From: Candidatus Omnitrophota bacterium
Lineage (GTDB): Bacteria; Omnitrophota; Gorgyraeia; 1-14-0-20-64-10; JACQQZ01
Direction: 5' to 3'
Assembly (NCBI GenBank): GCA_016206635.1
Contig: JACQRF010000059.1
Span: 1-45,532 of the forward strand
DNA: 45,532 nt
Both the position numbers and the translations under genes were made by a program. Positions 1-19,549 of this stretch are shown here, in pieces (the first letter of the stretch is position 1; each line of letters starts with the position of its first letter). Below the pieces are notes generated by a model, which was not told where the DNA came from, made no database searches, and saw nothing but the letters and a program-made list of their open reading frames with translations.

Positions 1-142
1 CCACTACCCAATCGCGGCGTGGCCGGGTCGGCCGGGGCGTCTGAATGAGAGCGGTTATCACATGGTCCTTGGTGTTCCAGTTGACGAGGACCACCGACAC
101 GCGCGAGGCGGGATTAGCGGCGGCGTCGAAGGGGCCGGTCAT
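1..142 (-). CDS. Glycosyltransferase family 2 (GT-A), 5' fragment; the gene continues past the left edge
   Basis: Reading the minus strand from ATG 142..140 gives MTGPFDAAANPASRVSVVLVNWNTKDHVITALIQTPRP... The 'VSVVLVNWNT' strand is the classic opening of GT2 enzymes. It is absent from the ORF track because it is truncated. An alternative GTG start lies at 100. The ATG start overlaps the upstream stop (114) by 29 nt. Confidence 0.5.
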   Translation of the reverse strand, partial: MTGPFDAAANPASRVSVVLVNWNTKDHVITALIQTPRPTRPRRDWVV

Positions 143-866
143 ACCACCGCAGGATCCGGAGGCGGTACCAAATGGCCATCGTGTCCCAGAAGGTATGGAA
201 GATGTCGAGCAGGCGAATCCGGTGCTGGTACCGCGTGGATTTGAGCGCGACCGGGGCCTGGGCGATCGTGTAGCCATAATGGTGCGCGAGCGCCAGCAGC
301 TCCAAATCAAACGCATAGCGCTTGACCAGCATCTTCGGGAAGATTTTCGCCAGCACTTCCCGTCGAAAGAGCTTGAGGCCGGTTTGCGTGTCACGGATCG
401 GTAGGCCGAAGAGGATTTTGATGAGGAAGAAATAGACATTGGAAATGAGACTGCGGTGCCACGGGTAGTCCACGCGGGATTCCGGATGCCGTTTGGCGCC
501 GATCACGACATCGGCGCCCGTGCGTTCCATCACCTCGTAGAGGGTCTTCACCTGAGCCGGGTGCAGGTCGAGGTCGCAGTCGAGGAACGCCACGAGTTCG
601 CCGGAGGTGGCCCGGAACCCTTTTTTGAGCGCCCGGCCCTTGCCGAAATTTTCACGATTCCGAGCCACCACGATCCGTCCGTGCCATCTCGCCAGTTGTT
701 CCAACGTCTCAAGCGTCCCATCCAGCGAGCCATCGTCCACCACCACCACCTCATAGTCCCACCCGAATTGGTCAAGCGTGCGAAGGGTTTCCTGGGCGGA
801 TGGCGTGATGACCGCCACTTCATTGTACGCTGGCATCAAGATCGAAAACCTCGGGGAGGACCTCAC
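114..866 (-). CDS. GT2 glycosyltransferase, DPM1/Ppm1-like (polyprenyl-phosphate hexosyltransferase type)
   Basis: Motifs FSILMPAYNE, YEVVVVDDGSLDGT, FLDCDLDLHP (DxD) and RDTQTGLKLF. The start is placed at GTG 866..864, which forms a GTGA overlap with the upstream stop (865..863). The ORF-track extension to 1049 runs inside the upstream gene. Confidence 0.8.
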   Translation of the reverse strand: MRSSPRFSILMPAYNEVAVITPSAQETLRTLDQFGWDYEVVVVDDGSLDGTLETLEQLARWHGRIVVARNRENFGKGRALKKGFRATSGELVAFLDCDLDLHPAQVKTLYEVMERTGADVVIGAKRHPESRVDYPWHRSLISNVYFFLIKILFGLPIRDTQTGLKLFRREVLAKIFPKMLVKRYAFDLELLALAHHYGYTIAQAPVALKSTRYQHRIRLLDIFHTFWDTMAIWYRLRILRWYDRPLRRRR

Positions 867-3091
867 CGCGACTTCCTGGCCGAAGGCGCCATCAGCACGC
901 CGAGAAGGCCTAAGACGAGCACGCCGAACGCGCAGGTCCCTAGCCACTCCGCGACAGCCGCCCATTGCAGGTACCAGCAGATCGTGGCGGCCCCTAACAA
1001 GCCGGCGAACCCGTACCAGGCATTGAGCATCGGCGCTTGACGCCACCATCGCCAGATGAACTCAAGCGAGAGCGGCACCATCACAAAGAGCCAGGCGATG
1101 ACGCCGGTCACGACTCTCAGAAGGCGCCGGATCGGTTGGAGCCACCGGTGAGGCACCCATCGCATCAGCCATTGCTCCCACCAAGCCCCCCAGGTTTCAA
1201 CGAGCGCCGTGGTGGCTTTGGATGCCAACGTCTCGATGAGTTGCTCTCCGCGCCCGATCCACTGCGGGCACCGGGGGATGGCCGCCATGACCGGCGGCAG
1301 TAACCACCAGATCCAGAATCCCCGCGCGGTGCCGACCAAGGGCGCGCCGGCCAGCGCGGTCACCACGAACACCGCGGGGGCGACGCCCCACAACAGGCCG
1401 TGGGTGATCCGCTCGAGTCGTGACCGCCGCAGTGGTCCGGTGAGATACCACAGCAAGGCCCCCATCAACCCCGAGACAAGCCAGCGCCAGGGTGAGAGGC
1501 GCTGACCCCGGACGTGAGGAGGGCCGAACCCGCTCAGCAGGTACCAATGGGGCGCCCGGAGCGTCCCTCGATAATTGCGGATTTCCATAGTTTCCCACTG
1601 GGTGGACGTTTCCGCCGTGTGATTGATGATGGACAGCCGGTTGGGGGTCGTCGCGTGCGTGATCCCCGGCGGCATACCGAGAAAATGCTTATCCCCGCGA
1701 TGCCGCACGGTGTTCACAACGGTGCCGATGGCATGGTCGTTCACCGCGAGTGAGAAACGGCACGCCTCCCATGGAATGATGTTGATCTTGAGAAGAAGCG
1801 GATAGGGGGTTGAGATCGGTGGAAACTCGAACACGGCCTGGGACGCGCCCAGCCGGGTGACGATGTTCCCGCGGAATCTCGGGTGCTGTTTGATCTGCCA
1901 TCCGCTCAGGAACCGGGCTTCGTGCGGCCCGTGGAGAGACGTGTCGTACCGGAACGACGTGGGGATAAACCCCGGCGCGACCAGCGCGGCATACGCGGCG
2001 GCGGTCGCCAGGCCCGCGAGGACGAGCGGTCTGGCGCGAAACGTCGTGACACGCTGGGACAGGATCCGTTGCGCGAGGGCCTGGAGCGCTACGACACCGA
2101 TGAGCCCTGTCAGCGTTGCGCAGATCACCGGATGCAGCCACCACGCCGCATCACGGTCCCGGCGGACCCCGCGCCAGGCCGCCAGCGCCGGGCCGACGAG
2201 GGTCACGCTGTAGAGCGGCCAGGCCAGCTCCCGCAGTCGGTGTGCAGGCGACAAGCGGGACCGCCGGGCCGCATACCCTTGGCCTCGGAGCAGGTTGTTC
2301 TCGATCCGGTGCCGGTATTTGCGGAAGAATTCCCGCACGCTCCGCACATGACGATGCGCGATCCCGGCGTCCTTCACGTAGGCGAACCGCCCGCCGCGCT
2401 CCGCGATGCGGCGCAGGGGCGTCATGTCGTCGCGTTGTTGGACCATGTGCGTCTCGACCAGCACATCGAACGCCCGGACGTCTGGATCGGCCGCGCCCAG
2501 CGCGGCCTCCGCCCTCTGGCGATGAATACAGACCCCTTGAGCCAGACAGATCGCGGGGTAGTCGCGCGCGGGGAAGGCGAACACCTGGTACGACGGCGTG
2601 TCGGCCTCGACCGGGAACCGATCCGCCATGTGGCGCGGATTGCAGGCGTCCCCGTACACAAAGGCGTAGAACGGGCCGCCGCCGGTCAGCGCGAAATACC
2701 GGTTCAGCGCCCAATCGTCCGGCACCACGGTGATGTGGGTGAAGGTGACGGTGACGTCCAGTCGCTCGACGAACGGCGCGGTCATGCGCGACAACCAGTG
2801 CGGATCCGGCAGGCGGTTATCCGCCGCCATCGGGATGACGACGTCCCCCTGCGCCTGGCGGATGGCGACCGCCACCCCCGGCTCACAGAGGCGCCGGGGG
2901 TTGGGATGCACGCGCGCGCCGTATCGCGCCGCAATGGCGGCGGTGTTGTCCGTCGAACCGCCATCAGCGATCGAAATGTCAATGCGGTCTTGCGGGTAGG
3001 CCTGGCGTCGGATGGATTCCAGGCAGCCGGCCAGCTCATCGGCCGCATTGAGGGTCGGGATGCAGAAGGCGACGCGCGGTTGGTCGCTCAT
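863..3091 (-). CDS. Fusion protein: N-terminal GT2 domain plus a C-terminal uncharacterised membrane module (TM anchor, extracytoplasmic beta-rich domain, multi-TM region)
   Basis: Starts MSDQPRVAFCIPTLNAADEL...ISIADGGSTDNT...PMAADNRLPDP (GT2). From about aa 355 it is colinear with the stand-alone protein at 13306..14631: AGLATAAAYAALVAPGFIPTSFRYD, NRLSIINHT...MEIRNYRG, FIWRWWRQ. ATG 3091 forms an ATGA overlap with the upstream stop at 3088. Confidence 0.8.
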   Translation of the reverse strand: MSDQPRVAFCIPTLNAADELAGCLESIRRQAYPQDRIDISIADGGSTDNTAAIAARYGARVHPNPRRLCEPGVAVAIRQAQGDVVIPMAADNRLPDPHWLSRMTAPFVERLDVTVTFTHITVVPDDWALNRYFALTGGGPFYAFVYGDACNPRHMADRFPVEADTPSYQVFAFPARDYPAICLAQGVCIHRQRAEAALGAADPDVRAFDVLVETHMVQQRDDMTPLRRIAERGGRFAYVKDAGIAHRHVRSVREFFRKYRHRIENNLLRGQGYAARRSRLSPAHRLRELAWPLYSVTLVGPALAAWRGVRRDRDAAWWLHPVICATLTGLIGVVALQALAQRILSQRVTTFRARPLVLAGLATAAAYAALVAPGFIPTSFRYDTSLHGPHEARFLSGWQIKQHPRFRGNIVTRLGASQAVFEFPPISTPYPLLLKINIIPWEACRFSLAVNDHAIGTVVNTVRHRGDKHFLGMPPGITHATTPNRLSIINHTAETSTQWETMEIRNYRGTLRAPHWYLLSGFGPPHVRGQRLSPWRWLVSGLMGALLWYLTGPLRRSRLERITHGLLWGVAPAVFVVTALAGAPLVGTARGFWIWWLLPPVMAAIPRCPQWIGRGEQLIETLASKATTALVETWGAWWEQWLMRWVPHRWLQPIRRLLRVVTGVIAWLFVMVPLSLEFIWRWWRQAPMLNAWYGFAGLLGAATICWYLQWAAVAEWLGTCAFGVLVLGLLGVLMAPSARKSR

Positions 3092-5926: not shown

Positions 5927-7137
5927 GGGTGTACAGTGTATCGCACGGACGCGACCGGGACAAGTTGCGCTGACGCGCGGAGATGGGTGATCAACGCATC
6001 CACGAGCCGGCGCTTGTCATGCGCCTCGGCCCACGCCCGAGCGCGTCCGGCCATCTGCGCGTACCGCTCGGGGTTCCGGCACAGCGCTACCAGGGCCTCG
6101 GCCATGGCCGCCGGCGTGTCGGCAACCACGCCTCCCCCGGCTTGCTGAAGCTCTTCGGCGGTGCCGGAGACTCGGTTGGCCACGACCGGCAGCCCGCAGG
6201 CGGCGTACTCCCAAATCTTCATCGAATCACAGTAGTGGCTCCACGCAGAGTCCTCGGCGTACCAGGCAACCCCGATCCAGCTGGACGCCGCCAGCGCCAG
6301 CGCGCGCGGCTGCGGCAGGAACCCGGTGGCGCGGACGGCGTCGTCGAGGCGCTTGGCCTGGATTTGCCGCGCCAACCGTTCGGCTTCCTCGGGGGTCAGA
6401 AACCCTCCGATAATCCGCAGGGTCAATTGAGGGATCGTTTGCCGCGCCAGGCGGAGACTTTCCAGCACCGGCTCCACGCCGACCCAGGGAGAAAGGGAGC
6501 CGGCCATCATCACGATTGATGCTGGCTGCCGCTCGCCGATTGGCTGGACGGTCATCTCGCCGGTGACGGGGGAGTTGGGAAACCGCAGAACGCGCCGGGC
6601 ATCGAGGCCTGGGATCGCCTGCAGGTACTCCATGATCCGCTGAGAGACCGCCGTGACAACGCGGGCGCGCCGCGCGACGAAGCGGAACAGGCGCAGGTAG
6701 AGCGCGTCCAGCCAGGGCTGCCCGAACCGCCGGGTTGAAAAATCGGCGATGTGGAATGCGAACGCTTGGACCACGCCGAGGCGCTGCAATCCCCACCCCG
6801 CGACGGCATTCAGCGGGTCGGCGCACAGGGCGACGGCCCGCGGAGACGGCGCGAACGCGCGCCGGACGGCCCAAACCGTCCACGCCGGTTCCAGCGTCCA
6901 GCGCAGCAGGGGCCATCGGCACCACGCTAGCCCCTGAAGGACCGGGCGCTCAGCGCCGCCATCGCGGTAACGGAGCGATGACGGGCCGCAGGCGTCCAAC
7001 GGATGCTCTACGATCCCCAACCGCCATCCCTGTCCGGCCAGCAGGTCCAGCACGCGATCGAGGCCGCCGGGTTTTGGCTGCGAGTCAATCAGGACGCGGT
7101 GGATCACGACGACCGCATCGTAGCGCCACGGCGTCAT
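5923..7137 (-). CDS. GT-B fold glycosyltransferase (GT4/GT1-like)
   Basis: The C-terminal half carries the retaining GT-B signature region ...MKIWEYAACGLPVVANRVSGTAEEL... ATG 7137 forms an ATGA overlap with the upstream stop at 7134. Confidence 0.75.
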   Translation of the reverse strand: MTPWRYDAVVVIHRVLIDSQPKPGGLDRVLDLLAGQGWRLGIVEHPLDACGPSSLRYRDGGAERPVLQGLAWCRWPLLRWTLEPAWTVWAVRRAFAPSPRAVALCADPLNAVAGWGLQRLGVVQAFAFHIADFSTRRFGQPWLDALYLRLFRFVARRARVVTAVSQRIMEYLQAIPGLDARRVLRFPNSPVTGEMTVQPIGERQPASIVMMAGSLSPWVGVEPVLESLRLARQTIPQLTLRIIGGFLTPEEAERLARQIQAKRLDDAVRATGFLPQPRALALAASSWIGVAWYAEDSAWSHYCDSMKIWEYAACGLPVVANRVSGTAEELQQAGGGVVADTPAAMAEALVALCRNPERYAQMAGRARAWAEAHDKRRLVDALITHLRASAQLVPVASVRYTVHP

Positions 7138-10100
7138 GGAGGGCCGGGGCGGCGAGGTCTCTGCCGGTGCGGCGCCAGCAGGAGGAGGACGCATCCCAAC
7201 AGGGTGACGGCGGAGAGACCCGCGGCGCGTCGGAAGCGGGTTTGAATCGTGTAGCGCAGGTCCAGGCGCTGCGGCGGCGCCAGCGTGGGTACCCACCAGG
7301 CATTCGAGAACCCGTCGGCTTCCCAGTGCGCCTCCATGGCGATGGATTGCGTGTCGAACCGCGTGGTCAGCTCCCAGGCCGGATGATAGGCGTCACGGAG
7401 GACCAGGAATGCCCCGGTGGGTTCCGCGCGGACCACCTCGGCACGATAGGAGGTCGCGGAGTCCTTCGAGGCCGCCAGCGGCATCGGCGGCGCCGGGGGC
7501 TTCGCCGTGCTCGCCACTTGGATGCACGCCGAGCGGGCGATCGGCGTGTCGATCGTGAGGATGCAATGGCCGGGGTCGAGCGTCAACGGCTGAGCCGTCG
7601 TCCATCCCCATGGGGTTTTGGTCATCACGAGCGCTTGTTGACCAAGACGCAGCTGGGGGGGAGACGGGTCAAGGCCGGCCATCGCGATGAGCTGGATGCC
7701 GTACTGGTCGCGGCGCGGGATGTACACGGCCACGCTCCGCACGGCCTGCCCGACCTGGACCGGGCTCACCAAGAATGTCCCGCTGAGATACCGGCCGTCC
7801 GACCCCAGGATTGGGCTGGCGGTCGCCGTGGACGGCGTGTACAGCTCGACCGGCGTCAGGCCGGGATTGACTATGAGGTCATCGACCACGACCGGCTGTG
7901 CTTTCGAGCCGACGGCGTGCAGGACGCGCATGGGCGACGGCGGCGCGCCGACATTCAGCGTGAGATCCCGTTCGATCCCCGGCGACAGCACGCGGAACGA
8001 CATCGCGCAGCGCACCGGGCCGGGCGCGTCATTCACCAGATACCAGTGCGGCCCGCCGCCGATGATCGCCCGCCACGGATCGGCCCCCGGTGACCCCAGC
8101 GGCAAACGCGCGGCGGTATCGGCCATAGTCACCATCGGAGCGGACTGGGGGTCCGGCTCCAGCGTGGTTTCCATAATGTCGGGAGAGAAGATCCAACGCA
8201 GCGCATGATCGGGCGCTTGCCACCAAGGGATCCAGTCCGCCATTCGGGCGGCCAGCTCATCCACCGGCACGACCATGATGGTCGTGGGGGGCGCGTTCCA
8301 GGCAGAGAACCCGACGGCGTTGACGGTATGCGTCCCGCGCGAGAGGTGGTAGACCCCGTAATTCCGCCACCCCTCGGCCGGTGGGAACCACGGCTCGGAC
8401 CCCTGGACCGCGACGATCCGATCGTCCACGAGCAGCTGCAGCGGCATGGCCGATCCGGCATCGAGGTAGCGCGCGGCCCCCACGAAGTAATCTTTCGAGA
8501 CCGGCACGAAGAATGTCTGCCGATGGTTCTGAACGATCGGCACACGGATGATGCCTTCGACCTGTTGCAGCAGCGTGTCGCCGGCCTGCGCGTTGAACCA
8601 CGTGATGCCGGTGATCGGGAGCTGGTCATAGCGGGCCGGGTCTATGGCCTGCGCTTTCAGGAAGACCGGCGCGGTGGAGAGCGCCCCCTGGGTCGCGAGC
8701 GGCAGCATCGCTTCCAGCGACCCGGTCAGCAACTCGGTGGTCGGAACCAACTCCACGTGAGGGGCCGGGTTCCCATCTACTTCGTAAAATGCCCAGTGGC
8801 CGAAAGTGCGGCTCAGGCGGACCCCTCGGCAGGCGCGCAGTCTCGCTTCGAGCTGCTCGGCGGCGTCCGACCGGCCCGCGAGGTCCCGAGTGCTGTCGCG
8901 GCGGACCAGCAGGTACCGGACGCCGAGGCGGTGCGCGATCTGCGCCACGGGGGTGGCATCGCCCCGGAGTAGCCCATCCGTCATGAGCTGTCGCAGCAGT
9001 TGGTCGCCGTGCTCCAGGTACCGGGTGTCCGCCATCGGCGAGGCGAACAGCACGGACCGATCGCTCAGATAATTCAAGAGATGGAGCGTGGAGGCGAATC
9101 CCCAGGTATAGCTGTCGGACGATTGCTCCGGCAGCGACAGGATGCGCCCCGGTTTCGCGTCGCGCGCCAGCCAGGCGGCCGCCTCGTACACATAGGCGGG
9201 CACCGAAATTTTCAGAGAGCTCAGCACGGTCGGGTCGTGACGCGGAAAGATTGCGCCGGTCAGCATCGGGAACCCGGCCATCACGACCGCGCCGGCGCAC
9301 CCGCCGATCAGCCATCGCCGGCGCGCGGGCCAGCGACGGCACAGTTCGCGGACCGTGACGCTCACGAGGCAGGCGTACAAAATGACCAGCGCGAGGCCGA
9401 ATTTATAGAACGGCGAGCGAAACGCCGCGAACCCAGGGATGTGATGGGCCAGCCACAGATACACCCCTCCGGTCGGCGGATGCGCCCCGCAGGCCAGGAC
9501 CGTCATGAAGGCGGCCATCACCGCGCACCACCGTGTGTGAAAATCCCGTGTCAGCAACACCGCTCCATAGGCGGCCACCGGCAGCGCCACGCCGACGCCG
9601 AGCAGCAGCGGGTTGCGGAAGTAGTGCATCGCATACGCCACGTACGGCTCGCTGCCGGCCCCCTCATACCAATCCCACAGGCCTTGCAGGCGCATCACGT
9701 TAAACAGGCTGGTGTGGCGGCTGATCCCTTCCAGCCAGTTATCCATCCCGACCGTTCCCAGATTGCTTAGTGCCGCCACGCCCGTATGCTGGACGCCGAA
9801 GCGGGTCGCCGTCTCGAGGAACAATGGCCACCACCAGAAGGCGGAGCAGGCCACGACGACCGGCAGGCCCCACCCCACGGTCGCGGCCACTCGCCCAACG
9901 CCTTGGCGTCCCGCCGTTCGCCACTGATGCACCACCGAACAGGCCGTATAGCTACCGACGACCAGGAGCACCATGCCGAGAATCGGCGGGGAGCCCCACT
10001 CCGAGGCGAAGACGGCGATCAGCCCCAGCCCGGCGGCCGCGCGCCGCGGGGCGACGAGACCATGGAACGCCAGAATGAGCACGGCCAGGACCAGGGGAAG

Positions 10101-10559: not shown

Positions 10560-11599
10560 GAACGCTTCTCCTCGGCCTTCACATACCAGAGCAGGCCGCC
10601 CCGCCAGGCCCGATCCCAGGTTGCGGGACGCAGGAACGGCTGGAGGATTTGCCGATCCGAGCGCCGGCGGATCTGCCGTTGCACGATGCGGCGTTTCCGC
10701 CACGTGGCCGCGAGGTGCCGGACATTCCACCACCAGGCGCGGCCAATCGCGCCGGCCCGCCCGAGTTTTCCGCACAACAGCGCGGCTGCCGCAAGCGCGG
10801 CGGTCAGCGTCCCATTGACGAGCAAGACGTAACAGAGCAGCGGCCCGCCCAGATTCTTGAGGTACATCGCGAACCGGTTTTTGTGGGAGTGGAATTGGAT
10901 GACACTGAACGGCAAGGTCCGAGTCGTCGTATGCCCCACTCGGTGCTCCATGCCGGCCCCGGGAACCAGCACGATACGGAACCCGGCCAACTGGATCCGC
11001 CACGCCAGATCGGTTTCCTCGCAATATGCGAAGAATGCATCGTCAAACCCCCCGACCCGCTCGAACACGTCGCGGCGAACCAGCAGGCAGGCCCCTTTGG
11101 GGCTGAAGATCTCCACGACGGCGCGCGGATCGGTCCCGACGTCGCGCCCCCTGTGCCCGTCATGCTGGAGGAACCCGGTCCAGGTGGGAAACTCGCCGAG
11201 AGAGTCCAGCTCGCCAGGCCGACCCATCCAAAAGATTTTCGGCTGGCACGAGCCGATCGTCGGGTCCGCTTCCAATGGGGCCACCAGCCGTTCCAAGAGG
11301 TCCGGCGGCACGGTCGTGTCATCGTTCAGAAAGAGGAGATAGCGTCCTCGGGCGATGCGAGCCCCTTGATTGGCGGCCGGCGCGAACCCGAGATTCTCTG
11401 TGTTGCGGATCAACCGGATATCCGGCCGGCAGCGGGCCGCCCATTCCGCGGTGCCGTCGTGGGAACCATTATCCACCAAGATCACCTCGAACGACGGCCC
11501 GCTCAACCGCGCCACAGTCTCCACACAAGTCTGGAGCATCCCGAGATCGTCGAGGTGCGCGATAATAATGGACACGTCCGGCGGCGGCTCAGTAACCAA
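10556..11599 (-). CDS. GT2 glycosyltransferase (WbbL/rhamnosyltransferase-like architecture) with a hydrophobic C-terminal extension
   Basis: VSIIIAHLDD, FEVILVDNGSHDGT, NLGFAPAANQG, LFLNDDT (DxD), CEETDLAWR. Paralog of 37713..38729. The start is uncertain: the track start at 11599 is TTG, and GTG at 11575 is an alternative. Confidence 0.8.
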   Translation of the reverse strand: MVTEPPPDVSIIIAHLDDLGMLQTCVETVARLSGPSFEVILVDNGSHDGTAEWAARCRPDIRLIRNTENLGFAPAANQGARIARGRYLLFLNDDTTVPPDLLERLVAPLEADPTIGSCQPKIFWMGRPGELDSLGEFPTWTGFLQHDGHRGRDVGTDPRAVVEIFSPKGACLLVRRDVFERVGGFDDAFFAYCEETDLAWRIQLAGFRIVLVPGAGMEHRVGHTTTRTLPFSVIQFHSHKNRFAMYLKNLGGPLLCYVLLVNGTLTAALAAAALLCGKLGRAGAIGRAWWWNVRHLAATWRKRRIVQRQIRRRSDRQILQPFLRPATWDRAWRGGLLWYVKAEEKRS

Positions 11600-13319
11600 T
11601 GGCTACCTGATAAAGGGTTGCGTCGTCGAACCGGCCGATGAGCTCCCAGCCGTTCTGCAACGTCAAGGTCGGTGGCGTTCTCGGTTCCCATGCGTGACGG
11701 TTCGGCACGTGATAGGTCACACCGAAGAGGGAGATGACAGCGGGAGCAGCGCTGATTGGCCGAGCGTACCATGCCGGGTGGACGATAATGTACCGTACCC
11801 CCGCGGCCGCAAGTTGGCGACGCACTGCCGGGCTGCCGGGGTCCGCCCAGGCGCGATCCGGAAGCGGCCCATCGTTCAATAGCGGCTTGCGGTGGAGGCG
11901 AGACCAAAACATGTACTCGGCATGTACATCGGTATCGATCCCGCGCCACGGATATTCCACGACGGTGCCCCCACCCGGTTCCTGGGCCAACCAGGCATAG
12001 ACGGGCGGGACCCGCGACACGTCCCGTACCTGCAGGCCCGGTAGGAACTCGATCAAGATCACCCCACCGAGCCCCCATGCGATCGCCCGATGGACCCACA
12101 CGCGTCGGATCGGCTCCAGCAATGCCCTGACACCAAACGCGGCGAGCACGGCCGCGGCGAGCATTACAACGAGCCCGAATCGCGCGTAGACCCTCAGCCA
12201 CGGCAGGAGGTGCTGCAGGAGGAACGACGGGAAATACACCTTGGCGGGCGCGACGACGGTATTGTTGATGATCTGAAATGATCCGAGCGGCACGAATGGC
12301 GGCGCCGAGCACAGCAAGGCGATGACGCTGGCCCCGGCCATCCATCGGATGACGCGCGCCTCCTGCGGCGTCCGGGCGCCGCGGAACAGTCCGACGACGG
12401 CCAGCGCGATGACGCCGTAGCCGAGAAACAGCGTTTGCTCCACCACATTGCTGCCGTACCAATGGGATCGAACGAATGGCGCCACGGCATCGCCCCACCA
12501 CGGATGATACGGCGACGGCGCCAAGTAATCCCACGGTTTCGCCGAGTACACGAAGAGGTCCTTCAGCCCCCACGTCAGCGTCAGCGGATGGACGCCGCCG
12601 GGCCTGAGTCCAGACCACAGGACGGCGAGGCCTGCCGCGCCGGTGACGCCGAGGAGGCCCAGCCACCCGCGCCGGCGCGCCGGGTCAGGCCACGCGAGCC
12701 CCGCGCCCAGCACGCCCAGCAGCAGGAACGTGAACAATCCATAATGTGGATTCCAGGAGCCCGCCCAGACCGCGAGACCCGCGCACGCCAGCCAGCGCCC
12801 GCGGCTCGGCCGCTCCACCCAACGCCACAGGCTCCACGGAATCAGCGGCAGCCATTGGATCGACGCCAAGCTCAATTGGGTCGTGTGGGCGAAATGATAA
12901 GGACAGAAGGCATACGCCACGCCGGCCACCACGCTGGCGGCCCGGTCGCCGGTGAGCGACCGGCACAGCAGATACATGCTCAAGCCGGCCATGGGGAAGC
13001 TTAGCCATAGGAGGAGATTGTAGGCGAAGACCTCGTGCATCGCGACGCTCAACGCCAGGAGACACACTTCCAGCATCGGCTCAAGCCCCCACATCCAGGC
13101 CGGAGCGATCAGACTCTGATGAGGGGCCACCCAAGCTTGTTGATGCATCCACACGTTGACGATCCCAAACATCGCGTCGCCCGGGCTGCCGTAATAGACC
13201 AGGACGCGGCCGAGATTCCACCCCAGCGGGGCGGTCATCCACCAGGCGAGGCCTGCGAAGAGCGCGATGAGGCCGAGCGGCCATTTCCAAGCGGCGGCTG
13301 CCGCGTTAGCGCGTGGCAT
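11589..13319 (-). CDS. Polytopic membrane protein, GT-C-like (YfhO/ArnT-superfamily-like) with a C-terminal extracytoplasmic domain
   Basis: At least 10 predicted hydrophobic segments. Motifs GSPGDAMFGIVNVWMHQQAW, AYAFCPYHFAHTTQLSLASIQWLPL and C-terminal GVRYIIVHPAWY. ATG 13319 overlaps the upstream stop (13306) by 14 nt. The function call is tentative. Confidence 0.55.
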   Translation of the reverse strand: MPRANAAAAAWKWPLGLIALFAGLAWWMTAPLGWNLGRVLVYYGSPGDAMFGIVNVWMHQQAWVAPHQSLIAPAWMWGLEPMLEVCLLALSVAMHEVFAYNLLLWLSFPMAGLSMYLLCRSLTGDRAASVVAGVAYAFCPYHFAHTTQLSLASIQWLPLIPWSLWRWVERPSRGRWLACAGLAVWAGSWNPHYGLFTFLLLGVLGAGLAWPDPARRRGWLGLLGVTGAAGLAVLWSGLRPGGVHPLTLTWGLKDLFVYSAKPWDYLAPSPYHPWWGDAVAPFVRSHWYGSNVVEQTLFLGYGVIALAVVGLFRGARTPQEARVIRWMAGASVIALLCSAPPFVPLGSFQIINNTVVAPAKVYFPSFLLQHLLPWLRVYARFGLVVMLAAAVLAAFGVRALLEPIRRVWVHRAIAWGLGGVILIEFLPGLQVRDVSRVPPVYAWLAQEPGGGTVVEYPWRGIDTDVHAEYMFWSRLHRKPLLNDGPLPDRAWADPGSPAVRRQLAAAGVRYIIVHPAWYARPISAAPAVISLFGVTYHVPNRHAWEPRTPPTLTLQNGWELIGRFDDATLYQVAIGY

Positions 13320-14631
13320 CGTGTTCGGTGGACATCTCGTCTCCATCGCGCAAGGCCCGCCACGCATACAGGGTGACACTGATCAGGATGGCTACCCATG
13401 CGGCGTCTTCGAATGGTGTCGCCCATGCTGTCCATCGCAGCCAGCGGCTCAGCCAGGAAGCGGCCAGCAACCACGCAAAGATCGTCAGATACCCGGACGC
13501 CGATTGGCGCCGCCACACCCACCGCAGGAACGCCAACAGCGCGATGGGGATCGCCCGGCTGATGATCCACCACGCGGCGCGCGCGATCGCCAGCGCCGCC
13601 CGCCGCGCCAGCCACCGCATCACGCCCCAGACGATCCCTGCGCCCTCGCGTACGCGACGCCAGCCGATCCTGCGCGAGTCGGCCATTGCTGTGCGAGCGC
13701 CTCGGAAACCCTTCGGGGCGCTGAGCTGCCGTCCCACCACCAGGGAGTCGTACCATTTCGGGAACGCGGTTCGGCACCGACGGATGAAGCTGAGGAGGCC
13801 CCGAATGACGAGCACGACCATTGCGAACGTCCCGACCAGGCCGCCCCATAGCGCGAGGGGAAGCCGCAGCGACCAACCCGACAGCAGGACGATGCGGTAT
13901 TCGGTCACCCACGACAGTCCGTGCAGCATCATCAGCGCGATGCCGGCGACCCACGCCACCCCGCCAGCCGCCGGCGCCGCCAGCGCCCAGCCCAGGAGGC
14001 GCGCCGCCGCGAGCGTCCCGGCCATCCACGCGCCGAGCAAGAGCCCCCAACGACAGAGCCAGGCGGCGACCGGCGCCGAGATCCGGCGCTCTGAGGGATC
14101 TTGGAATAGCAGATACCCCGCCCGCTCCACAATCGGCGCCCGGTAGTTGGTCAGCTTGATTTGCTCGTGCCGCACAGTCTTCGGCGTCCCGCTGTTCAGG
14201 AAGGTCACGACGTTATCGCCGGGCCGCGTGACGCCGGCGGGCACCTGGACGAGAAACTTCTCGGCGCGGCCGCCGTGGGCGCCGTGGACGGTGGTGAGCC
14301 GCTCACCGTTCCAGTGGATCTCCGCCGCTTGCCCGCCGGCGCCGAACGCCAGTTTCATCTTGGCCACGTACGACCCGCGGCGCGGCAGCGGGACGACGAC
14401 TTGCACTGGGCCGCCACGGTCCATCACGTCCACGACCGCCGGGTATTTGGGGTTGCGCACCAGAATCTCAGCCCCAGAGACCGACGATTCAGCCACGGCG
14501 CGCCGGGACAGATCGAGCTCCGAGACCCATGGGGTGAAACCGGAGGGGGCGTCCAATCCCACGGCGGCGTACGCGCCGATCGCCGCCGCCGCGGCCAACC
14601 CGGCCCACCACCGCCACGTCATCGCGCCCAT
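13306..14631 (-). CDS. Uncharacterised membrane protein: signal anchor, beta-rich extracytoplasmic domain and multi-TM/basic region; stand-alone paralog of the C-terminal module of 863..3091
   Basis: MGAMTWRWWAGLAAAAAIGAYAAVGLDAPSGFTPWVSELD..., IHWNGERLTTV, DNVVTFLNSG...IKLTNYRA, FLRWVWRRQ. All of these align with aa ~355-690 of the GT2 fusion protein. ATG 14631 lies 1 nt after the upstream stop (14633). An alternative ATG lies at 14622. Confidence 0.75.
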   Translation of the reverse strand: MGAMTWRWWAGLAAAAAIGAYAAVGLDAPSGFTPWVSELDLSRRAVAESSVSGAEILVRNPKYPAVVDVMDRGGPVQVVVPLPRRGSYVAKMKLAFGAGGQAAEIHWNGERLTTVHGAHGGRAEKFLVQVPAGVTRPGDNVVTFLNSGTPKTVRHEQIKLTNYRAPIVERAGYLLFQDPSERRISAPVAAWLCRWGLLLGAWMAGTLAAARLLGWALAAPAAGGVAWVAGIALMMLHGLSWVTEYRIVLLSGWSLRLPLALWGGLVGTFAMVVLVIRGLLSFIRRCRTAFPKWYDSLVVGRQLSAPKGFRGARTAMADSRRIGWRRVREGAGIVWGVMRWLARRAALAIARAAWWIISRAIPIALLAFLRWVWRRQSASGYLTIFAWLLAASWLSRWLRWTAWATPFEDAAWVAILISVTLYAWRALRDGDEMSTEHDATR

Positions 14632-14632
14632 G

Positions 14633-15829
14633 CTAGATGCTCCTCGGGCGCCGCAGGACAATCACGACTAGTCCAATCGTCACGACTGTAATGCCCAACC
14701 CTTGCCAAAACACGACCGGTTGATATCGCAATTCCACGGTGTGTTCACCGCGGCCCCGCACGAGGAGGCCCCGAATAATGCCGTCCGCCATGTAGAGCGT
14801 CGCCGGGCGCCCGTTCACGGTGGCCTTCCACCCGGGGAAATAAGTGGCGCTGACCACCACTGGCGTGACGCCGGCCTGCGTGGTCACGCGGAACCGCCAC
14901 CGGCTGGGTTCTTGGGCCACGATTTCGACGCGGGCCGGGGCGGGCGTGACGTCGGGGGTCGCGAATAGTTCGGCGAGCTGATCCCGGCTGTCCGACGAGA
15001 GGCGTTTCGCGGCAAAATAGTCGGTCGTGATCGAGTGCGTTACGAGCCCCGGTTGGGAATAGCGGTAGCCGCTGTACGCCAGTTCAATGACGCGGCCGCC
15101 GCCGGCTCGGTACGCGTCTAATAACGCCTCGACCTTCTCCCGATTCCACGCCCTCGGTCTGGCCAACAGGACCGCCTGAAATGGCTGGAGATCCTCCACG
15201 GTCAGCAAATCCAGCATATCCACTGGGCTTCGGAATATGGCCCACTGCGCCGGATCGAACACAGGATGGAAAAGCGCCAGGCGGGCCTCCGTACCATTCC
15301 AATCGTACTCTTGGTCTTTGCCGATGAGCAAGGCGGCTCGCGACGGGGTCCAAGCCCGAGGGAGCCACGACGTCAGCTCGTACAGCGTGAGGTCGCCGTC
15401 CCGCCGCACGACGCGGGTCTGCGGGCTGGCGAAGTCCCGCATCGAGGGGCGCGCGAGGAGGTAGCGCGCGTTGAGGATGCGGAAAATCTTGAGGCTCCGC
15501 GCCAGCTCTTCCGGGTCCTGGAGATTATGGAACGACGGGGAATGATGATACCGGGGGGCGAACCCGCTGTGCGTCGAAAACATCATGACGTCATAGCCGC
15601 TCCGGAACGCCGTGTACGGATAGATAGTCTCGGGGACGTCCCCGTTATACACGCGGAAGGTATCGGCGCCGTGCTGACGCGCCAAGCCGGCCAGCACGGC
15701 GTTCCACCCTGTCCCCGGCACGAACCGTTGGTACGGGTACCGCGCGAGATACACTTGCCGGGGGATGACCACGCACGCGGCGGCGGCGGCGAGCGTGGCG
15801 GCGCCCAGGGACGTGACCCACCGCCTCAT
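14633..15829 (-). CDS. YfhO-like protein, C-terminal (extracytoplasmic) half encoded as a separate gene
   Basis: MRRWVTSLGAATLAAAAACVV anchor, then a domain colinear with aa ~430-815 of the fused paralog 25055..27502: FRILNARYLLARPS, FHPVFDPAQWAIF, YFPGWKATVNGRPA, GRGEHTVELRYQPV and a terminal TM. ATG 15829 forms an ATGA overlap with the stop of the N-terminal-half gene (15826). Confidence 0.75.
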   Translation of the reverse strand: MRRWVTSLGAATLAAAAACVVIPRQVYLARYPYQRFVPGTGWNAVLAGLARQHGADTFRVYNGDVPETIYPYTAFRSGYDVMMFSTHSGFAPRYHHSPSFHNLQDPEELARSLKIFRILNARYLLARPSMRDFASPQTRVVRRDGDLTLYELTSWLPRAWTPSRAALLIGKDQEYDWNGTEARLALFHPVFDPAQWAIFRSPVDMLDLLTVEDLQPFQAVLLARPRAWNREKVEALLDAYRAGGGRVIELAYSGYRYSQPGLVTHSITTDYFAAKRLSSDSRDQLAELFATPDVTPAPARVEIVAQEPSRWRFRVTTQAGVTPVVVSATYFPGWKATVNGRPATLYMADGIIRGLLVRGRGEHTVELRYQPVVFWQGLGITVVTIGLVVIVLRRPRSI

Positions 15830-17010
15830 CCTGTCCACTCCGGTTGTTGAGCCCCTCCCTGCGCCTGGGTTACCCCCAGCGCCGCCAGGAGCGGGAATGT
15901 CAGGTATGCGATGCTTAGCACGCGGTCGGCATACGGCGTGTACCGGAAGTTCGGCATCACCCGGCACAACACCTCGAACAAATCCAGCGGCGCCCGCGGA
16001 CCCATCGCGATCCACCCGACCAGAACGGTCAGCGCGCCGAAGATCAGCGCCGGGCGCCGGAACGGGGACGGCCGCCGAGCCGACCACGCCAGCCAGAGGA
16101 CCGCCGCCGCATACGCGATGTTCACCCACCCTCCGAGCCACGAGGGTTGAGGGCCGAAGAACTGCGTGATCAGCCGGCCGATTTCCGGCCAAGTGGTGAA
16201 GCCGCCGTATTCCATGCCGACCCACTCGAGCACCTCAATGTCGAAGCGGGTCCGGGTCGTGTACGGGGCATACTGCAGGATTGGCAACAGCTTGATCGCC
16301 CCCACTCCCGCGGCGAACCCGAACACCCAGCAGACATGGCGGATCATCTGCCAGACCCGCAGGGGCCACGGCCGCTCGGCGGTGGCGGCGGCCAACGCGA
16401 TGATGATGGCCGAGGCGAGAAGGGTAAACTGCATCTCGTACGTTGTGCCGGCCAGGATCTGGCCGGCCAGGCAGATGGCTGACCCCAACAGCCACCGGCG
16501 GTCATCCCGCATGGCGCCCCGCCACAGGCAGGCCAGCCCCCATGGGGTCAGCGCCATTGCGTAGAACGTCTGGACGACGCCGTTGGCCAATTGTTGAGTC
16601 ACCCAAGGGTTGAACAAGTAGCCGGTGGGGACAAGGCACGCCGCCAGGCGGGAGGCCCCGACCCACCGCGCGAGGGTGTAGGCGCCGGCCGCCGCGGCCA
16701 ACAGATGGAGATAGGCCATCCAACGGATCGCGAGCGTATCGTGGGTGAACAGAAATGTCAGCCACATCGGTGGATAAAACTGTCCGGCCAGCGGATACTC
16801 CAGCAACGGTTCCCCGGCGCCGCTGAATGGGTTCCACAGCGGGAGGTCGTGCAGGGTGAATACCAGATGCTTGGCGACCAGGTAGGGATACCCGACAAAC
16901 GCCTGGGATTCTCCAAACAACGTATCGGGGGAGACCATCACCAGCGGGCTCAGCAAAACCGCCGTTACGGCAACGATGCTCCACAGGACCCACCGTTCTC
17001 GAATCGTCAT
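15826..17010 (-). CDS. YfhO-like GT-C membrane protein, N-terminal polytopic half
   Basis: Colinear with the N-terminal half of 25055..27502: LSPLVMV...FVGYPYLVAKHL..LHDLPLWNPF..GQFYPPMW..YLHLLAAAAGAYTLARWVG..WGLACLWRG. The start at ATG 17010 has a GAGG 8 nt upstream and fits the paralog alignment. ATG 17031 and GTG 17091 are alternatives. Confidence 0.75.
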   Translation of the reverse strand: MTIRERWVLWSIVAVTAVLLSPLVMVSPDTLFGESQAFVGYPYLVAKHLVFTLHDLPLWNPFSGAGEPLLEYPLAGQFYPPMWLTFLFTHDTLAIRWMAYLHLLAAAAGAYTLARWVGASRLAACLVPTGYLFNPWVTQQLANGVVQTFYAMALTPWGLACLWRGAMRDDRRWLLGSAICLAGQILAGTTYEMQFTLLASAIIIALAAATAERPWPLRVWQMIRHVCWVFGFAAGVGAIKLLPILQYAPYTTRTRFDIEVLEWVGMEYGGFTTWPEIGRLITQFFGPQPSWLGGWVNIAYAAAVLWLAWSARRPSPFRRPALIFGALTVLVGWIAMGPRAPLDLFEVLCRVMPNFRYTPYADRVLSIAYLTFPLLAALGVTQAQGGAQQPEWTG

Positions 17011-17039
17011 GCGCTGTGCCTCGCTAGACATAGCTTGTG

Positions 17040-17048
17040 ATTGTAACA
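17040..17048 (-). promoter_or_regulatory. Candidate extended -10 promoter element (TGTTACAAT) in the only sizeable intergenic gap
   Basis: The minus-strand gap reads ctgaacgtccccttccggccgTGTTACAATcacaagctATG... It is locally AT-rich in an otherwise GC-rich window. No convincing -35 element. The element lies 8 nt upstream of ATG 17031. Confidence 0.25.
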
Positions 17049-17069
17049 CGGCCGGAAGGGGACGTTCAG

Positions 17070-18674
17070 TCACGGTAGAGGGTATTCGCACGAGGCGTGG
17101 CGTCGTTCGTTCAGCGCCGGCAGCAGGTGGCTGAGATCCCGCCAGGGATACAGATCGCTCGGCTGGTACGGCCGGCTCGTGGCCACGTACATGTAGGTGG
17201 CGCTCGACATGACCGCCAGCGTCTTAAGCCGCGTCCATCGGTCGTCAAGCCAGAACTCCCATTTGACGGCGGTCGGCACGGCGCCGACGAAGCACTTGCG
17301 GTATCGGAGCGGCATCTGCCGGCGGCGCGGGAGAATCCCCAATTCCTGCAGCCACCGCCGCGTGGCGTTCGCGGGGAGGAAGCGGCCGACCACCAGCAGG
17401 AACGCGCGAAATGCGAACTGTGTCTCTGGCGAAAACCGGAGGTCGCGATGGACCGCGCATCCCCCTTCGATGATCCGCATCGGTCCTTCCTGGCGGTAGG
17501 ACGACGCCCCCGCGATCTGCGAGGTGAACCGCGCGCCGGCCTGCGTCCGCCCCGTGATGCCGCAGTCCGCGTGGGCCAGGACGCCGCGCCGAAACACCTT
17601 GGCGACGCCCCCTTTGCGGGTGGACACGACCGCATAGTCGTGGCCGTCGCCGGCCACCCAGAGCCCCGCGCGGGGGAAATACCGCTCAATGGCTTGCTCG
17701 CACGGCAGCGTCCCTGCCGACCGATCCACAGTCCAATCACAGGCGGCCTGAAGAAGATTGGCGCTGTAATGGGCGAATCCCCGGTCATCCTGCACGCCCT
17801 TCGGCATCCCGCGCGCCAGGCGTTCGAGGTGGCGCTCGCTCATCCGCGCCGCCTCCGGGACGTGCCGGGCCATGAGCTCCAGGCCGTGCGGGAGCACGTG
17901 GCACGTATTCCGGCTGCCGTATTCCCCGCCGTAACTGCCATCGGGGTGCATGAAGTGGGCGGCGAATCGGATCGCGTTCGTGACCGGTTCCCGCACGCGG
18001 TCCACGCCTTTTTGGCCGAGCTTGGCCAGAAAATCAATGGTGAAGCTCAGATAGCCCGGATCGCACCCTTCATACTCCGGGAACCACCCTTCAGGATCTT
18101 GCAGGGCCAATACCCGATCAAGCAGGCGGTTCGACTGGCGCTCGAACCACGGATCGCGCGTGAGGAGGACCACATTGCGGAGCGCCAGCGCCATCAGGGC
18201 GAGATGGTTTGACAACGTGCCGGATTCTCGAGATCCCGTGCGCGCGAGGTAGCGCCCCCGGCGTTTGAAAAAGTCGAGGGTGATCGCATCAACCGGCAGA
18301 TCGAGCAGCCGGTGCGCCTCCGTGCAGGCGTACAGGGAGAACGCGGCCGCCCCGGCCGCGCGCTCGTATGGAAAATAATCGTCGCACGACCCGTCGGCAT
18401 GCGACGCCTTCGCCGCGAACCGGATCCCGGCTCCCACCAATTCCCGCACCCGGGCTTGCTGGTGGTACGGGTTCTCCGGACGGTCCGTCCGATACGCGAT
18501 CGCCAGCGCCAAGACCGCTTCCTGAAACATCCCACTCGGAAACTCGCTGGTCCGGTAATGCCAATACCCGCGGTCAAAGCACCCGTAGGTCGGGCTGAAC
18601 GGATCCCGGTCGCACGATTCGATCAAGCGGGGGAGATCGGAGAGGCCGGCCCGCCAATACCCGTCCCCTGTCAT
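17070..18674 (-). CDS. Soluble hypothetical protein; possibly an (alpha/alpha)-toroid plus beta-sandwich enzyme (heparinase II/III-like lyase/epimerase fold)
   Basis: No TM segments. Repeats resemble prenyltransferase/toroid repeats (QDPEGWFPEYEGCDPGY, HPDGSYGGEYGSRN, ADGSCDDYFPYE), followed by a beta-rich C-terminus. ATG 18674 forms an ATGA overlap with the upstream stop at 18671. Coding status is solid; the fold and function are guesses. Confidence 0.4.
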   Translation of the reverse strand: MTGDGYWRAGLSDLPRLIESCDRDPFSPTYGCFDRGYWHYRTSEFPSGMFQEAVLALAIAYRTDRPENPYHQQARVRELVGAGIRFAAKASHADGSCDDYFPYERAAGAAAFSLYACTEAHRLLDLPVDAITLDFFKRRGRYLARTGSRESGTLSNHLALMALALRNVVLLTRDPWFERQSNRLLDRVLALQDPEGWFPEYEGCDPGYLSFTIDFLAKLGQKGVDRVREPVTNAIRFAAHFMHPDGSYGGEYGSRNTCHVLPHGLELMARHVPEAARMSERHLERLARGMPKGVQDDRGFAHYSANLLQAACDWTVDRSAGTLPCEQAIERYFPRAGLWVAGDGHDYAVVSTRKGGVAKVFRRGVLAHADCGITGRTQAGARFTSQIAGASSYRQEGPMRIIEGGCAVHRDLRFSPETQFAFRAFLLVVGRFLPANATRRWLQELGILPRRRQMPLRYRKCFVGAVPTAVKWEFWLDDRWTRLKTLAVMSSATYMYVATSRPYQPSDLYPWRDLSHLLPALNERRHASCEYPLP

Positions 18675-19549
18675 CGATGCCGCTGCGCCACGATGAGATC
18701 CGCGATGATCCCCACTGCGGCGATCAGCACGGCCAGCATGATGAGGATGATGTCTGATTCCTGCAGCGACCCCGTGAGCGTCAGGCTGTAGTACGACTTG
18801 ATCCCCCATGCCATGAACAGGACGGCGGCGAGCGGGCCCAGCACCCTGAGAGGGGCGAAATAGATCGTCATCCGGATGATCGTCCCTAGATACGCCGCCG
18901 TATCCCGGATCGGGTGGAACTTCGAGCGCCCGATGCGGGGGCGGTAGACGGCGGGAATGTACTTCACCGGATGGCCGTTCATCAAGAACGCCAGCGTGAG
19001 ACTCGTGACGCAGGAGAACCCATTGGGCAATACCCAAAGATACCGCAGCGCCAGATCCCGCTTGCACGCCTTGAGTCCCGTGTTCAAATCGGGAATCGCG
19101 GCGCGGGTCAGGTAGCAGGCCAATTGCCGCAAGACCCATTTGGCCGGGATGCGCAGCAGCCGGGCGGCGCCCATCTCGCGCGTCCGGGCGCCATTGACCT
19201 GATCGTAATCGGGGAAATAACGCAGCATCTCCGGGAGCACCGACGGGTCATAGGACCCATCGGCGTCAAGCATCACGACAATGGGGCCGCGGCTCGCCAC
19301 GATCCCGAGCTTCCGCGCGGCGCCCGAGCCCCCGCGGCATGGGCGCCGGACCACGCGCGCCCCTTCGGCTTCGGCGGCCAAGGCCGTGCCATCAGTCGAC
19401 CCGTCGTCCACCACCACGATCTCGTATGGATAGGGGGTGCGGTCCATTGCCGCGCGGACGTCCCGCACCACATGGGCGATGGCCAACGCCTCGTTGAACG
19501 CCGGCAGCACGACGCTCACCTGCGGCAGCCCCGCTGCGTCAGGAGACAT
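18671..19549 (-). CDS. GT2 polyprenyl-phosphate glycosyltransferase (DPM1/GtrB-like) with C-terminal TM helices
   Basis: VSVVLPAFNEALAI, YEIVVVDDGSTDGT, VMLDADGSYDP (DxD), DLNTGLKA and hydrophobic C-terminal segments. ATG 19549 overlaps the upstream stop (19539) by 11 nt. Confidence 0.8.
   Translation of the reverse strand: MSPDAAGLPQVSVVLPAFNEALAIAHVVRDVRAAMDRTPYPYEIVVVDDGSTDGTALAAEAEGARVVRRPCRGGSGAARKLGIVASRGPIVVMLDADGSYDPSVLPEMLRYFPDYDQVNGARTREMGAARLLRIPAKWVLRQLACYLTRAAIPDLNTGLKACKRDLALRYLWVLPNGFSCVTSLTLAFLMNGHPVKYIPAVYRPRIGRSKFHPIRDTAAYLGTIIRMTIYFAPLRVLGPLAAVLFMAWGIKSYYSLTLTGSLQESDIILIMLAVLIAAVGIIADLIVAQRHR

Follow-up and report, generated by a model that had tools for sequence, protein, structure and literature searches.

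The window analysed here is a whole 45.5-kb contig (67% GC) from a metagenome-assembled genome (MAG) labelled Candidatus Omnitrophica bacterium, and it encodes two copies of an inner-membrane module with an outward-facing domain that resembles carbohydrate-binding modules (CBMs). Copy A forms the C-terminal part of a 742-residue protein that begins with a family 2 glycosyltransferase (GT2). Copy B is a stand-alone protein of 441 residues (HY600_02105, hypothetical protein). As judged from their sequences, A and B are true, ancient and much-diverged paralogues over their whole length. They belong to a family of rare, unnamed inner-membrane proteins, so far found only in groundwater Omnitrophota. 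Taken together, the profile searches, the structure model and the gene neighbourhoods tentatively favour one function for the family, to which we give a probability of about 45%: a glycan-binding membrane adaptor for the periplasmic glycan-assembly machinery.

If the module is such an adaptor, its action would involve: exposure of the CBM-type sandwich to the periplasm; binding by that sandwich of the growing polysaccharide or lipid-linked precursor at the outer face of the membrane; and docking of the helical domain on a neighbouring GT-C glycosyltransferase or, for copy A, on the membrane GT2. Docking would thereby hold the acceptor near the active site, a role akin to that of the built-in CBMs of mycobacterial AftD and EmbC or of the BcsB jelly-roll domains.

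Homology of the two copies and extent of the family

All window coordinates below refer to the minus strand. The fused reading frame of 742 residues occupies 863-3091. Its GT2 portion (residues 1-351; 2039..3091) is a cytoplasmic GT-A domain with a Pfam GT2 match (Glycos_transf_2) at residues 10-123 (E 3e-17), followed in the hydropathy profile by one clear hydrophobic helix (residues 315-345) and a weaker one preceding it. Copy A makes up the last 391 residues (352-742; 866..2038), with its stop codon at 863-865. Copy B spans 13309..14631, with its stop codon at 13306-13308; it has a GC content at third codon positions of 0.84 and is identical to family member P0001, which derives from a Candidatus Omnitrophica MAG.

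The first-pass annotation of this DNA had proposed that the C-terminal part of the 742-residue protein is colinear with copy B, and the short strings it quoted in support all lie where it placed them, on the minus strand. Pairwise comparison gives this relationship modest support. The BLASTP alignment of the two copies is confined to their first ~175 residues (31 bits at 22% identity; E 4e-5 when only this pair is compared), and in an all-against-all BLAST of the window proteins the A-B pair misses E 0.01. Smith-Waterman scores tested against shuffled sequences are significant for the extracytoplasmic domain, both for A vs B (z 6.6, p~1e-4) and for P0002, the stand-alone orthologue of A, vs B (z 10.7, p~6e-7). 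The membrane part by itself does not reach significance (p 0.03 and 0.5) and at this level is indistinguishable from composition. When a profile of A and P0002 is compared with B, HMMER subtracts 41.5 bits as composition bias.

The colinearity is borne out at full length by a family profile of 18 members, from which A, P0002 and B were left out. This profile scores B at 260 bits (profile positions 3-390, full length), with 82 bits for the B membrane domain alone, and A at 113.6 bits (profile positions 8-380, full length). For A, the outer domain alone scores 73.4 bits with 0.0 bias, and the membrane part alone 16.3 bits (E 2e-7 for one target). The 30 other proteins of the window all remain below 4 bits, many Trp/Arg/Ala-rich membrane proteins among them. 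Together, these scores settle the homology and refute the concern, raised at first pass, that the resemblance is merely compositional, a product of Trp/Arg/Ala-rich membrane segments in a 67% GC genome with no shared module. The failed pairwise alignment of the membrane half and the bias correction justify that concern at the pairwise level only, and with a bias-free, significant outer domain and full-length profile matches its probability is practically nil. A and B are the only copies that a domain profile, and a scan of the six-frame open reading frames with the family profile, recovered from the window.

The module had been called unrecognisable at first pass, and it remains so: sequence searches of Pfam, NCBIfam and the PDB returned nothing significant, and no description of the family was found in the literature on Omnitrophota glycosyltransferases. 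An exhaustive HMMER search with a three-sequence alignment against 1.84 billion cluster representatives yielded 24 proteins at E<=1e-3, most of them stand-alone proteins of 385-440 residues that span the full profile; the 18 members of the family profile come from this set. In one related locus (L002) a second member of 427 residues (12064-13347; 225 bits) stands directly after an AftD-like gene and was missed by this search, making the family size a lower bound. A word-indexed homologue search retrieved self only for B, one relative (P0002) for A and self only for the 21-sequence profile, probably because composition-rich helices swamped the candidate list. Scans of GTDB genomes with one subfamily alignment, and of JGI metagenomes with the other, returned nothing; the remaining GTDB and JGI scans added three genome loci and one metagenome locus.

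All named sources of family members are groundwater Omnitrophota MAGs, and the loci range in GC content from 34% to 69%. Identity between subgroups is 15-30%. A and P0002 (406 residues; 50-52% identical to A) form their own branch, in a divergent subfamily that also includes P0007, and B groups with P0005, P0008, P0015 and P0018. Two copies per genome is a recurrent arrangement: L002 has two, and P0004 and P0014 come from one MAG. The module is new as a family and very rare.

Fold, topology and gene partners

An AlphaFold2 model of copy B, computed from a 21-sequence alignment (mean pLDDT 80), places a 12-strand beta-sandwich at residues 36-176, with pLDDT values of 86-98 that mostly exceed 90 over residues 30-176. 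Foldseek comparison of this model with the PDB gives a top 50 dominated by CBM35 and CBM6 domains (E 8e-8 to 2e-5, probability 1.0, TM-score 0.56-0.67), with BcsB at rank 31 (E 1.2e-5). The suggestion made at first pass that the outward-facing domain is carbohydrate-binding-like thus finds good agreement in the model. Consistent with this, sub-threshold Pfam matches in single members among the 21 (BetaGal_ABD2 in three, a PL4 CBM-like domain in two and BcsB in one) all point to jelly-roll sugar-binding domains.

In the model of B, an N-terminal anchor helix (TM1, residues 6-27; 14551..14616), which hydropathy also indicates, precedes the CBM6/CBM35-like sandwich (residues 30-176; 14104..14544). 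The membrane domain that follows (residues 185-441; 13309..14079) comprises TM2-4 (helices 188-213, 225-242 and 251-289), a poorly ordered Arg-rich amphipathic stretch, a long helix ending in RWxWRxQ, and TM5-6 (helices 378-397 and 401-440). Copy A has the same order of parts. Its anchor helix (residues 353-378; 1958..2035), identified by hydropathy, aligns with TM1 of B; its extracytoplasmic beta-rich domain (residues ~379-531; 1499..1957) is homologous to the sandwich modelled in B, from which its fold would follow; and hydropathy gives about five helices in its membrane domain (866..1498). The strings that the first-pass annotation took for the end of the module, FIWRWWRQ in A and FLRWVWRRQ in B, prove to be internal. 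The WRWWRQ motif of A (1037-1060) lies within the membrane domain, as does an AEWLG motif (938-952), and FLRWVWRRQ in B (13504-13530) closes the Arg-rich stretch before TM5-6; two more hydrophobic helices follow in each case.

In the outer domain (B numbering) N108 and N162 are invariant, and D40, Y88, K93, K125, N140 and E156 are at least 90% conserved, as is W371 in the membrane domain; A and B both retain every one of these residues. At the predicted outer face lie a SPYR-type motif between TM3 and TM4 and an AE-x-x-G motif between TM5 and TM6. The former is present in most members, reads TEYR in B (13894-13905) and is absent from A and P0002. At the predicted inner face, the Arg-rich stretch carries a conserved R-W-x-W-R-x-Q-x-x-x-G-Y motif, and the 68 residues before TM5 average 9.7 Lys and Arg vs 2.1 Asp and Glu. 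Both A and B combine the full-length profile match, the conserved outer residues and the R-W-x-W-R motif before TM5.

Fusion of a cytoplasmic GT2 to the N-terminus, and of a cytoplasmic methyltransferase to the C-terminus in P0012, places both ends of the module inside the cell. From this and from the charge of the stretch before TM5 we infer an N-in/C-in topology with six helices, in which the sandwich and the SPYR and AE motifs are outside and the RWxWR motif is at the inner face.

The partners of the module vary. Contig L001 is syntenic with the window, the flanking genes of the two being 62-83% identical. Its GT2 (351 residues) and its module (P0002) are encoded by two genes that overlap by 4 nt, and the GT2 portion of the fused protein is 79% identical to this separate GT2. 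DNA alignment of the window with L001 shows a 2-nt indel shortly before the GT2 ends, which in the window brings the GT2 tail into the frame of the module. The junction is a locally diverged stretch, and in the window the alternative frame has no nearby stop. The fused reading frame is real in the assembled sequence, where the indel may nevertheless be an error of the MAG. Because L001, with its ~50%-identical relative of A, has separate genes, the sequence comparison suggests that the fusion is a shallow, recent, lineage-specific gene merger, one that records a partnership and not a dedicated synthase architecture.

Across the family, 20/24 matches are not fused to any GT2. Other fusions involve different enzymes: in P0009 (1162 residues) and P0021 (1140 residues) the module is N-terminal to a PMT/PMT_2-type GT-C, and in P0012 (700 residues) it is followed by a SAM methyltransferase. 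P0021 (L007, 5246-8668, in a 34%-GC genome) carries after its PMT_2-type GT-C a C-terminal domain resembling 3-keto-disaccharide hydrolase (concanavalin-type), such that two different lectin-type domains flank one GT-C enzyme.

Gene order was examined in 15 occurrences, of which 13 copies could be scored for adjacency to a GT-C enzyme. A GT-C gene lies immediately upstream of window copy B (YfhO-like) and of the second L002 copy and the copies in L003, L006, L008 and L011 (all AftD-like). It lies immediately downstream of the module in L004 and L005, and it is fused to the module in the first L002 copy and in L007. In total, 11 of the 13 copies that could be scored have a GT-C enzyme as fusion partner or immediate neighbour; in this count B scores through its upstream YfhO-like gene and not through its 549-residue downstream neighbour. 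A GT2 is adjacent or fused in window A, L001, L006, L008 and L012. All module loci are variants of one giant, translationally coupled operon type that is rich in GT-C enzymes (AftD-like, YfhO-like and PMT_2-like) and membrane GT2s.

Competing accounts of function

Several observations weigh against an adaptor. A modelled CBM-type fold is by itself no proof of sugar binding, and the two invariant Asn residues, like the conserved Asp, Glu and Lys, may instead have a structural or metal-binding role. The five conserved helices and the motifs on both faces are not obviously those of a pure adaptor and fit transport or catalysis better. The membrane part modelled alone reaches a pLDDT of 78 and a pTM of 0.41, which makes its helix packing unreliable. 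The two module copies of the window face at least six GT-C and at least seven GT2 enzymes, with no one-to-one pairing. GT-C genes make up about a quarter of the operon genes, so a GT-C neighbour would be expected by chance for ~44% of genes, and the adjacency argument is statistically weak. The 18 profile members were recruited through a profile that contained A and B and are not fully independent, although each passed E<1e-3 against 1.84e9 sequences. GT-C adjacency is by itself only suggestive; the independent fusions weigh more. More generally, the organisms are uncultivated, the family is tiny and the evidence is computational only.

The main rival, though an unlikely one, is that the module is a flippase. 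The helical domain would carry polyprenyl-phosphate sugars outward as the third component of a GT2/flippase/GT-C system, and the outer sandwich with the SPYR and AE motifs would receive the sugar head group and pass it to the GT-C enzyme. The operon supplies the two ends of such a pathway, with an ArnC-type polyprenyl-phosphate glycosyltransferase on one side and, on the other, an ArnT/PMT_2-like enzyme plus five or more further GT-C enzymes, and the family is fused or coupled to both ends, GT2 and GT-C. The middle component is absent: no GtrA, SMR/EamA or MATE-type flippase is found in the window operon, where only a Wzx-like gene is present and the genes are packed too tightly for a small flippase gene to have escaped annotation, and none of these three types appears in the gene tables of L001-L008. 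Flippases may, however, be encoded elsewhere in these incomplete genomes. The conserved motifs on both membrane faces fit transport, and the identity of the flippase in three-component systems varies (GtrA, SMR, MATE) and is seldom proven (PMC11127046). Against this, the module has no sequence or fold similarity to known flippases or transporters, no conserved charged residue lies inside its helices, a lectin-type domain is foreign to known flippases, and copy A is without the SPYR motif.

A broader version of this idea, distinctly unlikely in our estimate, is that the family is a new kind of lipid-linked-sugar handler. It would act in flipping or donor delivery, with the lectin domain presenting the head group to the GT-C enzyme, and would thereby supply the flippase that the operon otherwise lacks.

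Quite improbable is that the family is itself an enzyme of the outer face: a small polymerase, ligase, phosphotransferase or decorating transferase. The active site would then consist of D40, the Tyr and Arg of SPYR and the Glu of the AE motif, with the substrate held by the sandwich. A near-invariant Asp ~10 residues after TM1 stands where the catalytic acid of GT-C enzymes is located, and the module has some six to seven helices in total. Its polar residues are invariant or nearly so despite pairwise identities of 15-30%. In the model, however, D40 lies in the first strand of the sandwich and not in a juxtamembrane loop. A and P0002 are without SPYR and yet are conserved at 50% identity, the module matches no enzyme family in Pfam or NCBIfam, and no PDB entry, whether GT-C, Wzy, WaaL or other, resembles the model of the membrane part alone (best E 3.8).

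Still less probable is a regulator of chain length or termination, in which the sandwich, like the CBM of Wzt, would detect a methyl, carbamoyl or amide group at the chain end and halt or free the chain. O-antigen export offers known examples of CBMs with this kind of terminal recognition (PMC11127046). Methyltransferases, carbamoyltransferases and AsnB-type amidotransferases abound in the operons, P0012 is fused to a methyltransferase, and the members in L003 and L004 adjoin a methyltransferase or a carbamoyltransferase. The Wzt CBM, however, is cytoplasmic and attached to an ABC transporter, none of which is encoded in the window, and Wzz/PCP regulators have two helices and an alpha-helical periplasmic domain, unlike the module.

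The first-pass annotation likened the 742-residue protein to a synthase that polymerises and translocates, and in that account, very improbable on present evidence, the GT2 would polymerise and the module would form the translocation path, as in BcsA or hyaluronan synthase. One reading frame does unite a GT2, membrane helices and an outward domain of sugar-binding type, and the outer domain has BcsB among its fold matches. By sequence, the GT2 comes closest in the PDB to PcManGT (6yv7), itself a GT2 anchored in the membrane. This enzyme reportedly has a minimal cellulose-synthase-like fold. The match to solved structures, PcManGT included, covers only the generic N-terminal ~95 residues, and the helices of the module come after the sandwich and not around the GT2 active site. 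The split gene pair of L001, the closest relative, already largely refutes the synthase account; most of the family has no GT2 fusion either, and elsewhere the module is joined to GT-C enzymes or to a methyltransferase. Copy B has no GT2; its immediate neighbours are the YfhO-like GT-C and a multi-pass protein. A device for acceptor recognition or chain length, which the first-pass annotation had offered as the other possibility, fits this evidence better than a synthase.

Most of what is understood about how GT-C enzymes assemble periplasmic glycans comes from mycobacteria, from the teichoic acids of Gram-positive bacteria and from O-antigen modification. There the enzyme recognises the acceptor through a part of its own, as with the CBMs of AftD and the Emb proteins, and the flippase step is often unassigned. 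Here, a CBM-type domain is instead carried by a separate, conserved membrane protein that swaps GT2, GT-C and methyltransferase partners by fusion and fission. If the module is an adaptor that holds the acceptor, acceptor recognition can be modular; if it serves a flippase or donor-delivery step, it would represent a new class.

The operon and its relation to known systems

The ~32 consecutive genes of the window (114-45499) all lie on the minus strand and fill the whole contig. Nearly all junctions are 4-nt overlaps of the ATGA/GTGA type, which indicates translational coupling, and to judge by this gene map the window reads as one translationally coupled operon of ~45 kb, unusually long. Pfam annotation identifies a very large glycan-assembly cluster with: at least seven GT2 genes, among them the ArnC-type polyprenyl-phosphate glycosyltransferase (21435-22394; E 4e-56 to ArnC structures), and two GT1/GT4 genes; three AftD-like, two YfhO-like and one PMT_2/ArnT-like GT-C enzymes; and methyltransferases, a formyltransferase, a DegT aminotransferase, several sugar dehydratases/epimerases and the Wzx-like flippase (43776-45137). 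The module family thereby draws attention to an operon type of Omnitrophota that is very large, tightly coupled and GT-C-rich, in a phylum whose cell envelope has hardly been studied by experiment.

Directly downstream of copy A, with a 4-nt overlap, lies a further GT2 (114..866; Pfam GT2 E 3e-34) that is 83% and 84% identical to the genes following the module in L001 and L008, respectively. A 575-residue protein elsewhere in the window (35992-37719) has a GT2 domain in its C-terminal half and an N-terminal half 30% identical to this GT2, and from these similarities it looks like a tandem double-GT2 protein.

Directly upstream of copy B, across a 1-nt gap, the YfhO-like GT-C (14633..17073) is divided into two reading frames with a 4-nt overlap (15826-17073 and 14633-15829). 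These match residues 89-460 and 542-898 of an intact paralogue at 25055-27502 with 41-44% identity. The split gene matches the Pfam YfhO C-terminus at 21.4 bits, below the curated cut-off of 28.5, and its homologue in L004 is one intact protein of 935 residues. The split is either a natural fission with translational coupling or a frameshift in the MAG. With both this split and the GT2-module merger seen, fusion and fission at coupled junctions are evidently common in this operon type.

Directly downstream of B is a 549-residue multi-pass membrane protein (11589..13238) with ~7-9 hydrophobic segments and a soluble C-terminus. It is 60% identical to the end of a 579-residue gene product of L001 (L001 1-472), has no Pfam or NCBIfam match and may be an unrecognised GT-C-type enzyme. 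A 534-residue protein (17070-18674), likewise with no Pfam or NCBIfam match and with no predicted membrane helix, is 31% identical to a homologue in the 34%-GC locus L007 (8949-9881); its recurrence marks it as a putative uncharacterised soluble component of the operon type.

Three paralogous large AftD-like GT-C proteins (7134-10559, 27499-30129 and 32840-35995) are ~28-32% identical to one another, and homologues are present in every related locus. The Pfam GT-C_AftD threshold is reached by 1/3 of them, and barely so (27.6 bits vs a cut-off of 26). AftD itself is described mainly from Actinobacteria. An Arn-like gene set (21435-22394, 30122-31642, 31639-32157 and 42631-43779) comprises the ArnC-type GT2, the PMT_2/ArnT-like GT-C, a formyltransferase domain protein, the DegT aminotransferase and dehydratases, with no ArnE/F-type flippase and no recognisable deformylase in the window. 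Two AsnB-type glutamine amidotransferases (19539-21431 and 40812-42626) and a carbamoyltransferase (23382-25055) form a trio that recurs in related loci with methyltransferases and radical SAM enzymes. This content suggests a glycan that is heavily decorated by amidation, carbamoylation and methylation.

Comparison with established families places the module beside several of them and within none. For the processive GT2 synthases (BcsA, HAS, PgaC), the GT2 of the fused protein shows only the generic Pfam matches Glycos_transf_2 and Glyco_tranf_2_3. The NCBIfam PgaC_IcaA profile reaches E 0.002, far below its threshold, and the Q-x-x-R-W motif was inspected by eye only. For Wzz/PCP proteins, the module has no Pfam Wzz match, its outer domain is all-beta and about five helices come after it. 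For GT-C enzymes, which usually have 8-13 or more helices, the module has about six, with no GT-C match in Pfam or NCBIfam and no structural match in the PDB. Profile alignment (hhalign) with the YfhO-like and PMT_2-like neighbours gives probabilities below 1%, and with the 549-residue and 534-residue neighbours nothing.

The GtrA, ArnE/F-SMR and MATE flippases resemble the module in being small membrane proteins whose genes lie between those of a polyprenyl-phosphate GT2 and of a GT-C enzyme or are fused to them (PMC11127046). They differ in helix count (4 or 12-14), in having no counterpart to the large outer lectin-type domain and in sharing no sequence or fold similarity with the module. 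The module matches no GtrA, EamA/SMR or MOP/MATE profile in Pfam or NCBIfam; a flippase-like function is still compatible with this result.

The CBM6 and CBM35 domains (PDB 2w1w, 2w47, 5fui, 1uxz) share the beta-sandwich jelly-roll that is predicted with high confidence for the outer domain of B, the TM-scores being normalised to the CBM. Identity in the structural alignments is only 11-17%, and none of 21 members matches Pfam CBM_6 or CBM35 at E<=5. In known proteins these domains are appended to secreted glycoside hydrolases, whereas here the domain is placed between the transmembrane helices of an inner-membrane protein.

BcsB offers a functional parallel, a membrane-anchored partner of the GT2 BcsA with jelly-roll carbohydrate-binding domains that contact the nascent glycan, and it is among the fold matches noted above. 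BcsB, however, has two carbohydrate-binding domains with flavodoxin-like repeats and one C-terminal helix, while the module has one sandwich and six helices and most of its members are not associated with a GT2. The Pfam BcsB match reaches E 0.1 in 1/21 members, the sequence match to BcsB in the PDB is at E 1.2-1.3, and no BcsA-type synthase is encoded in the window.

AftD has a GT-C core and three periplasmic CBMs that bind long arabinan acceptors; after the CBMs come TM12 and then a four-helix bundle, TM13-16, as a separate C-terminal membrane domain (bioRxiv 10.1101/2019.12.22.885152). The module family has an analogous order, a CBM-type domain and then about five helices, and usually adjoins AftD-like GT-C genes. 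It differs in being a separate polypeptide with its own N-terminal anchor, and no link to an acyl carrier protein is known for it. Derivation as a free-standing AftD C-terminal part was considered and rejected: in profile-profile comparison with the AftD-like proteins of the operon, the match of the sandwich is weak (probability 36%) and the helices have none, leaving an analogy only. The attachment of a CBM to membrane glycan machinery is, in concept, already known from such systems; what is unusual in the module family is the architecture and the swapping of partners.

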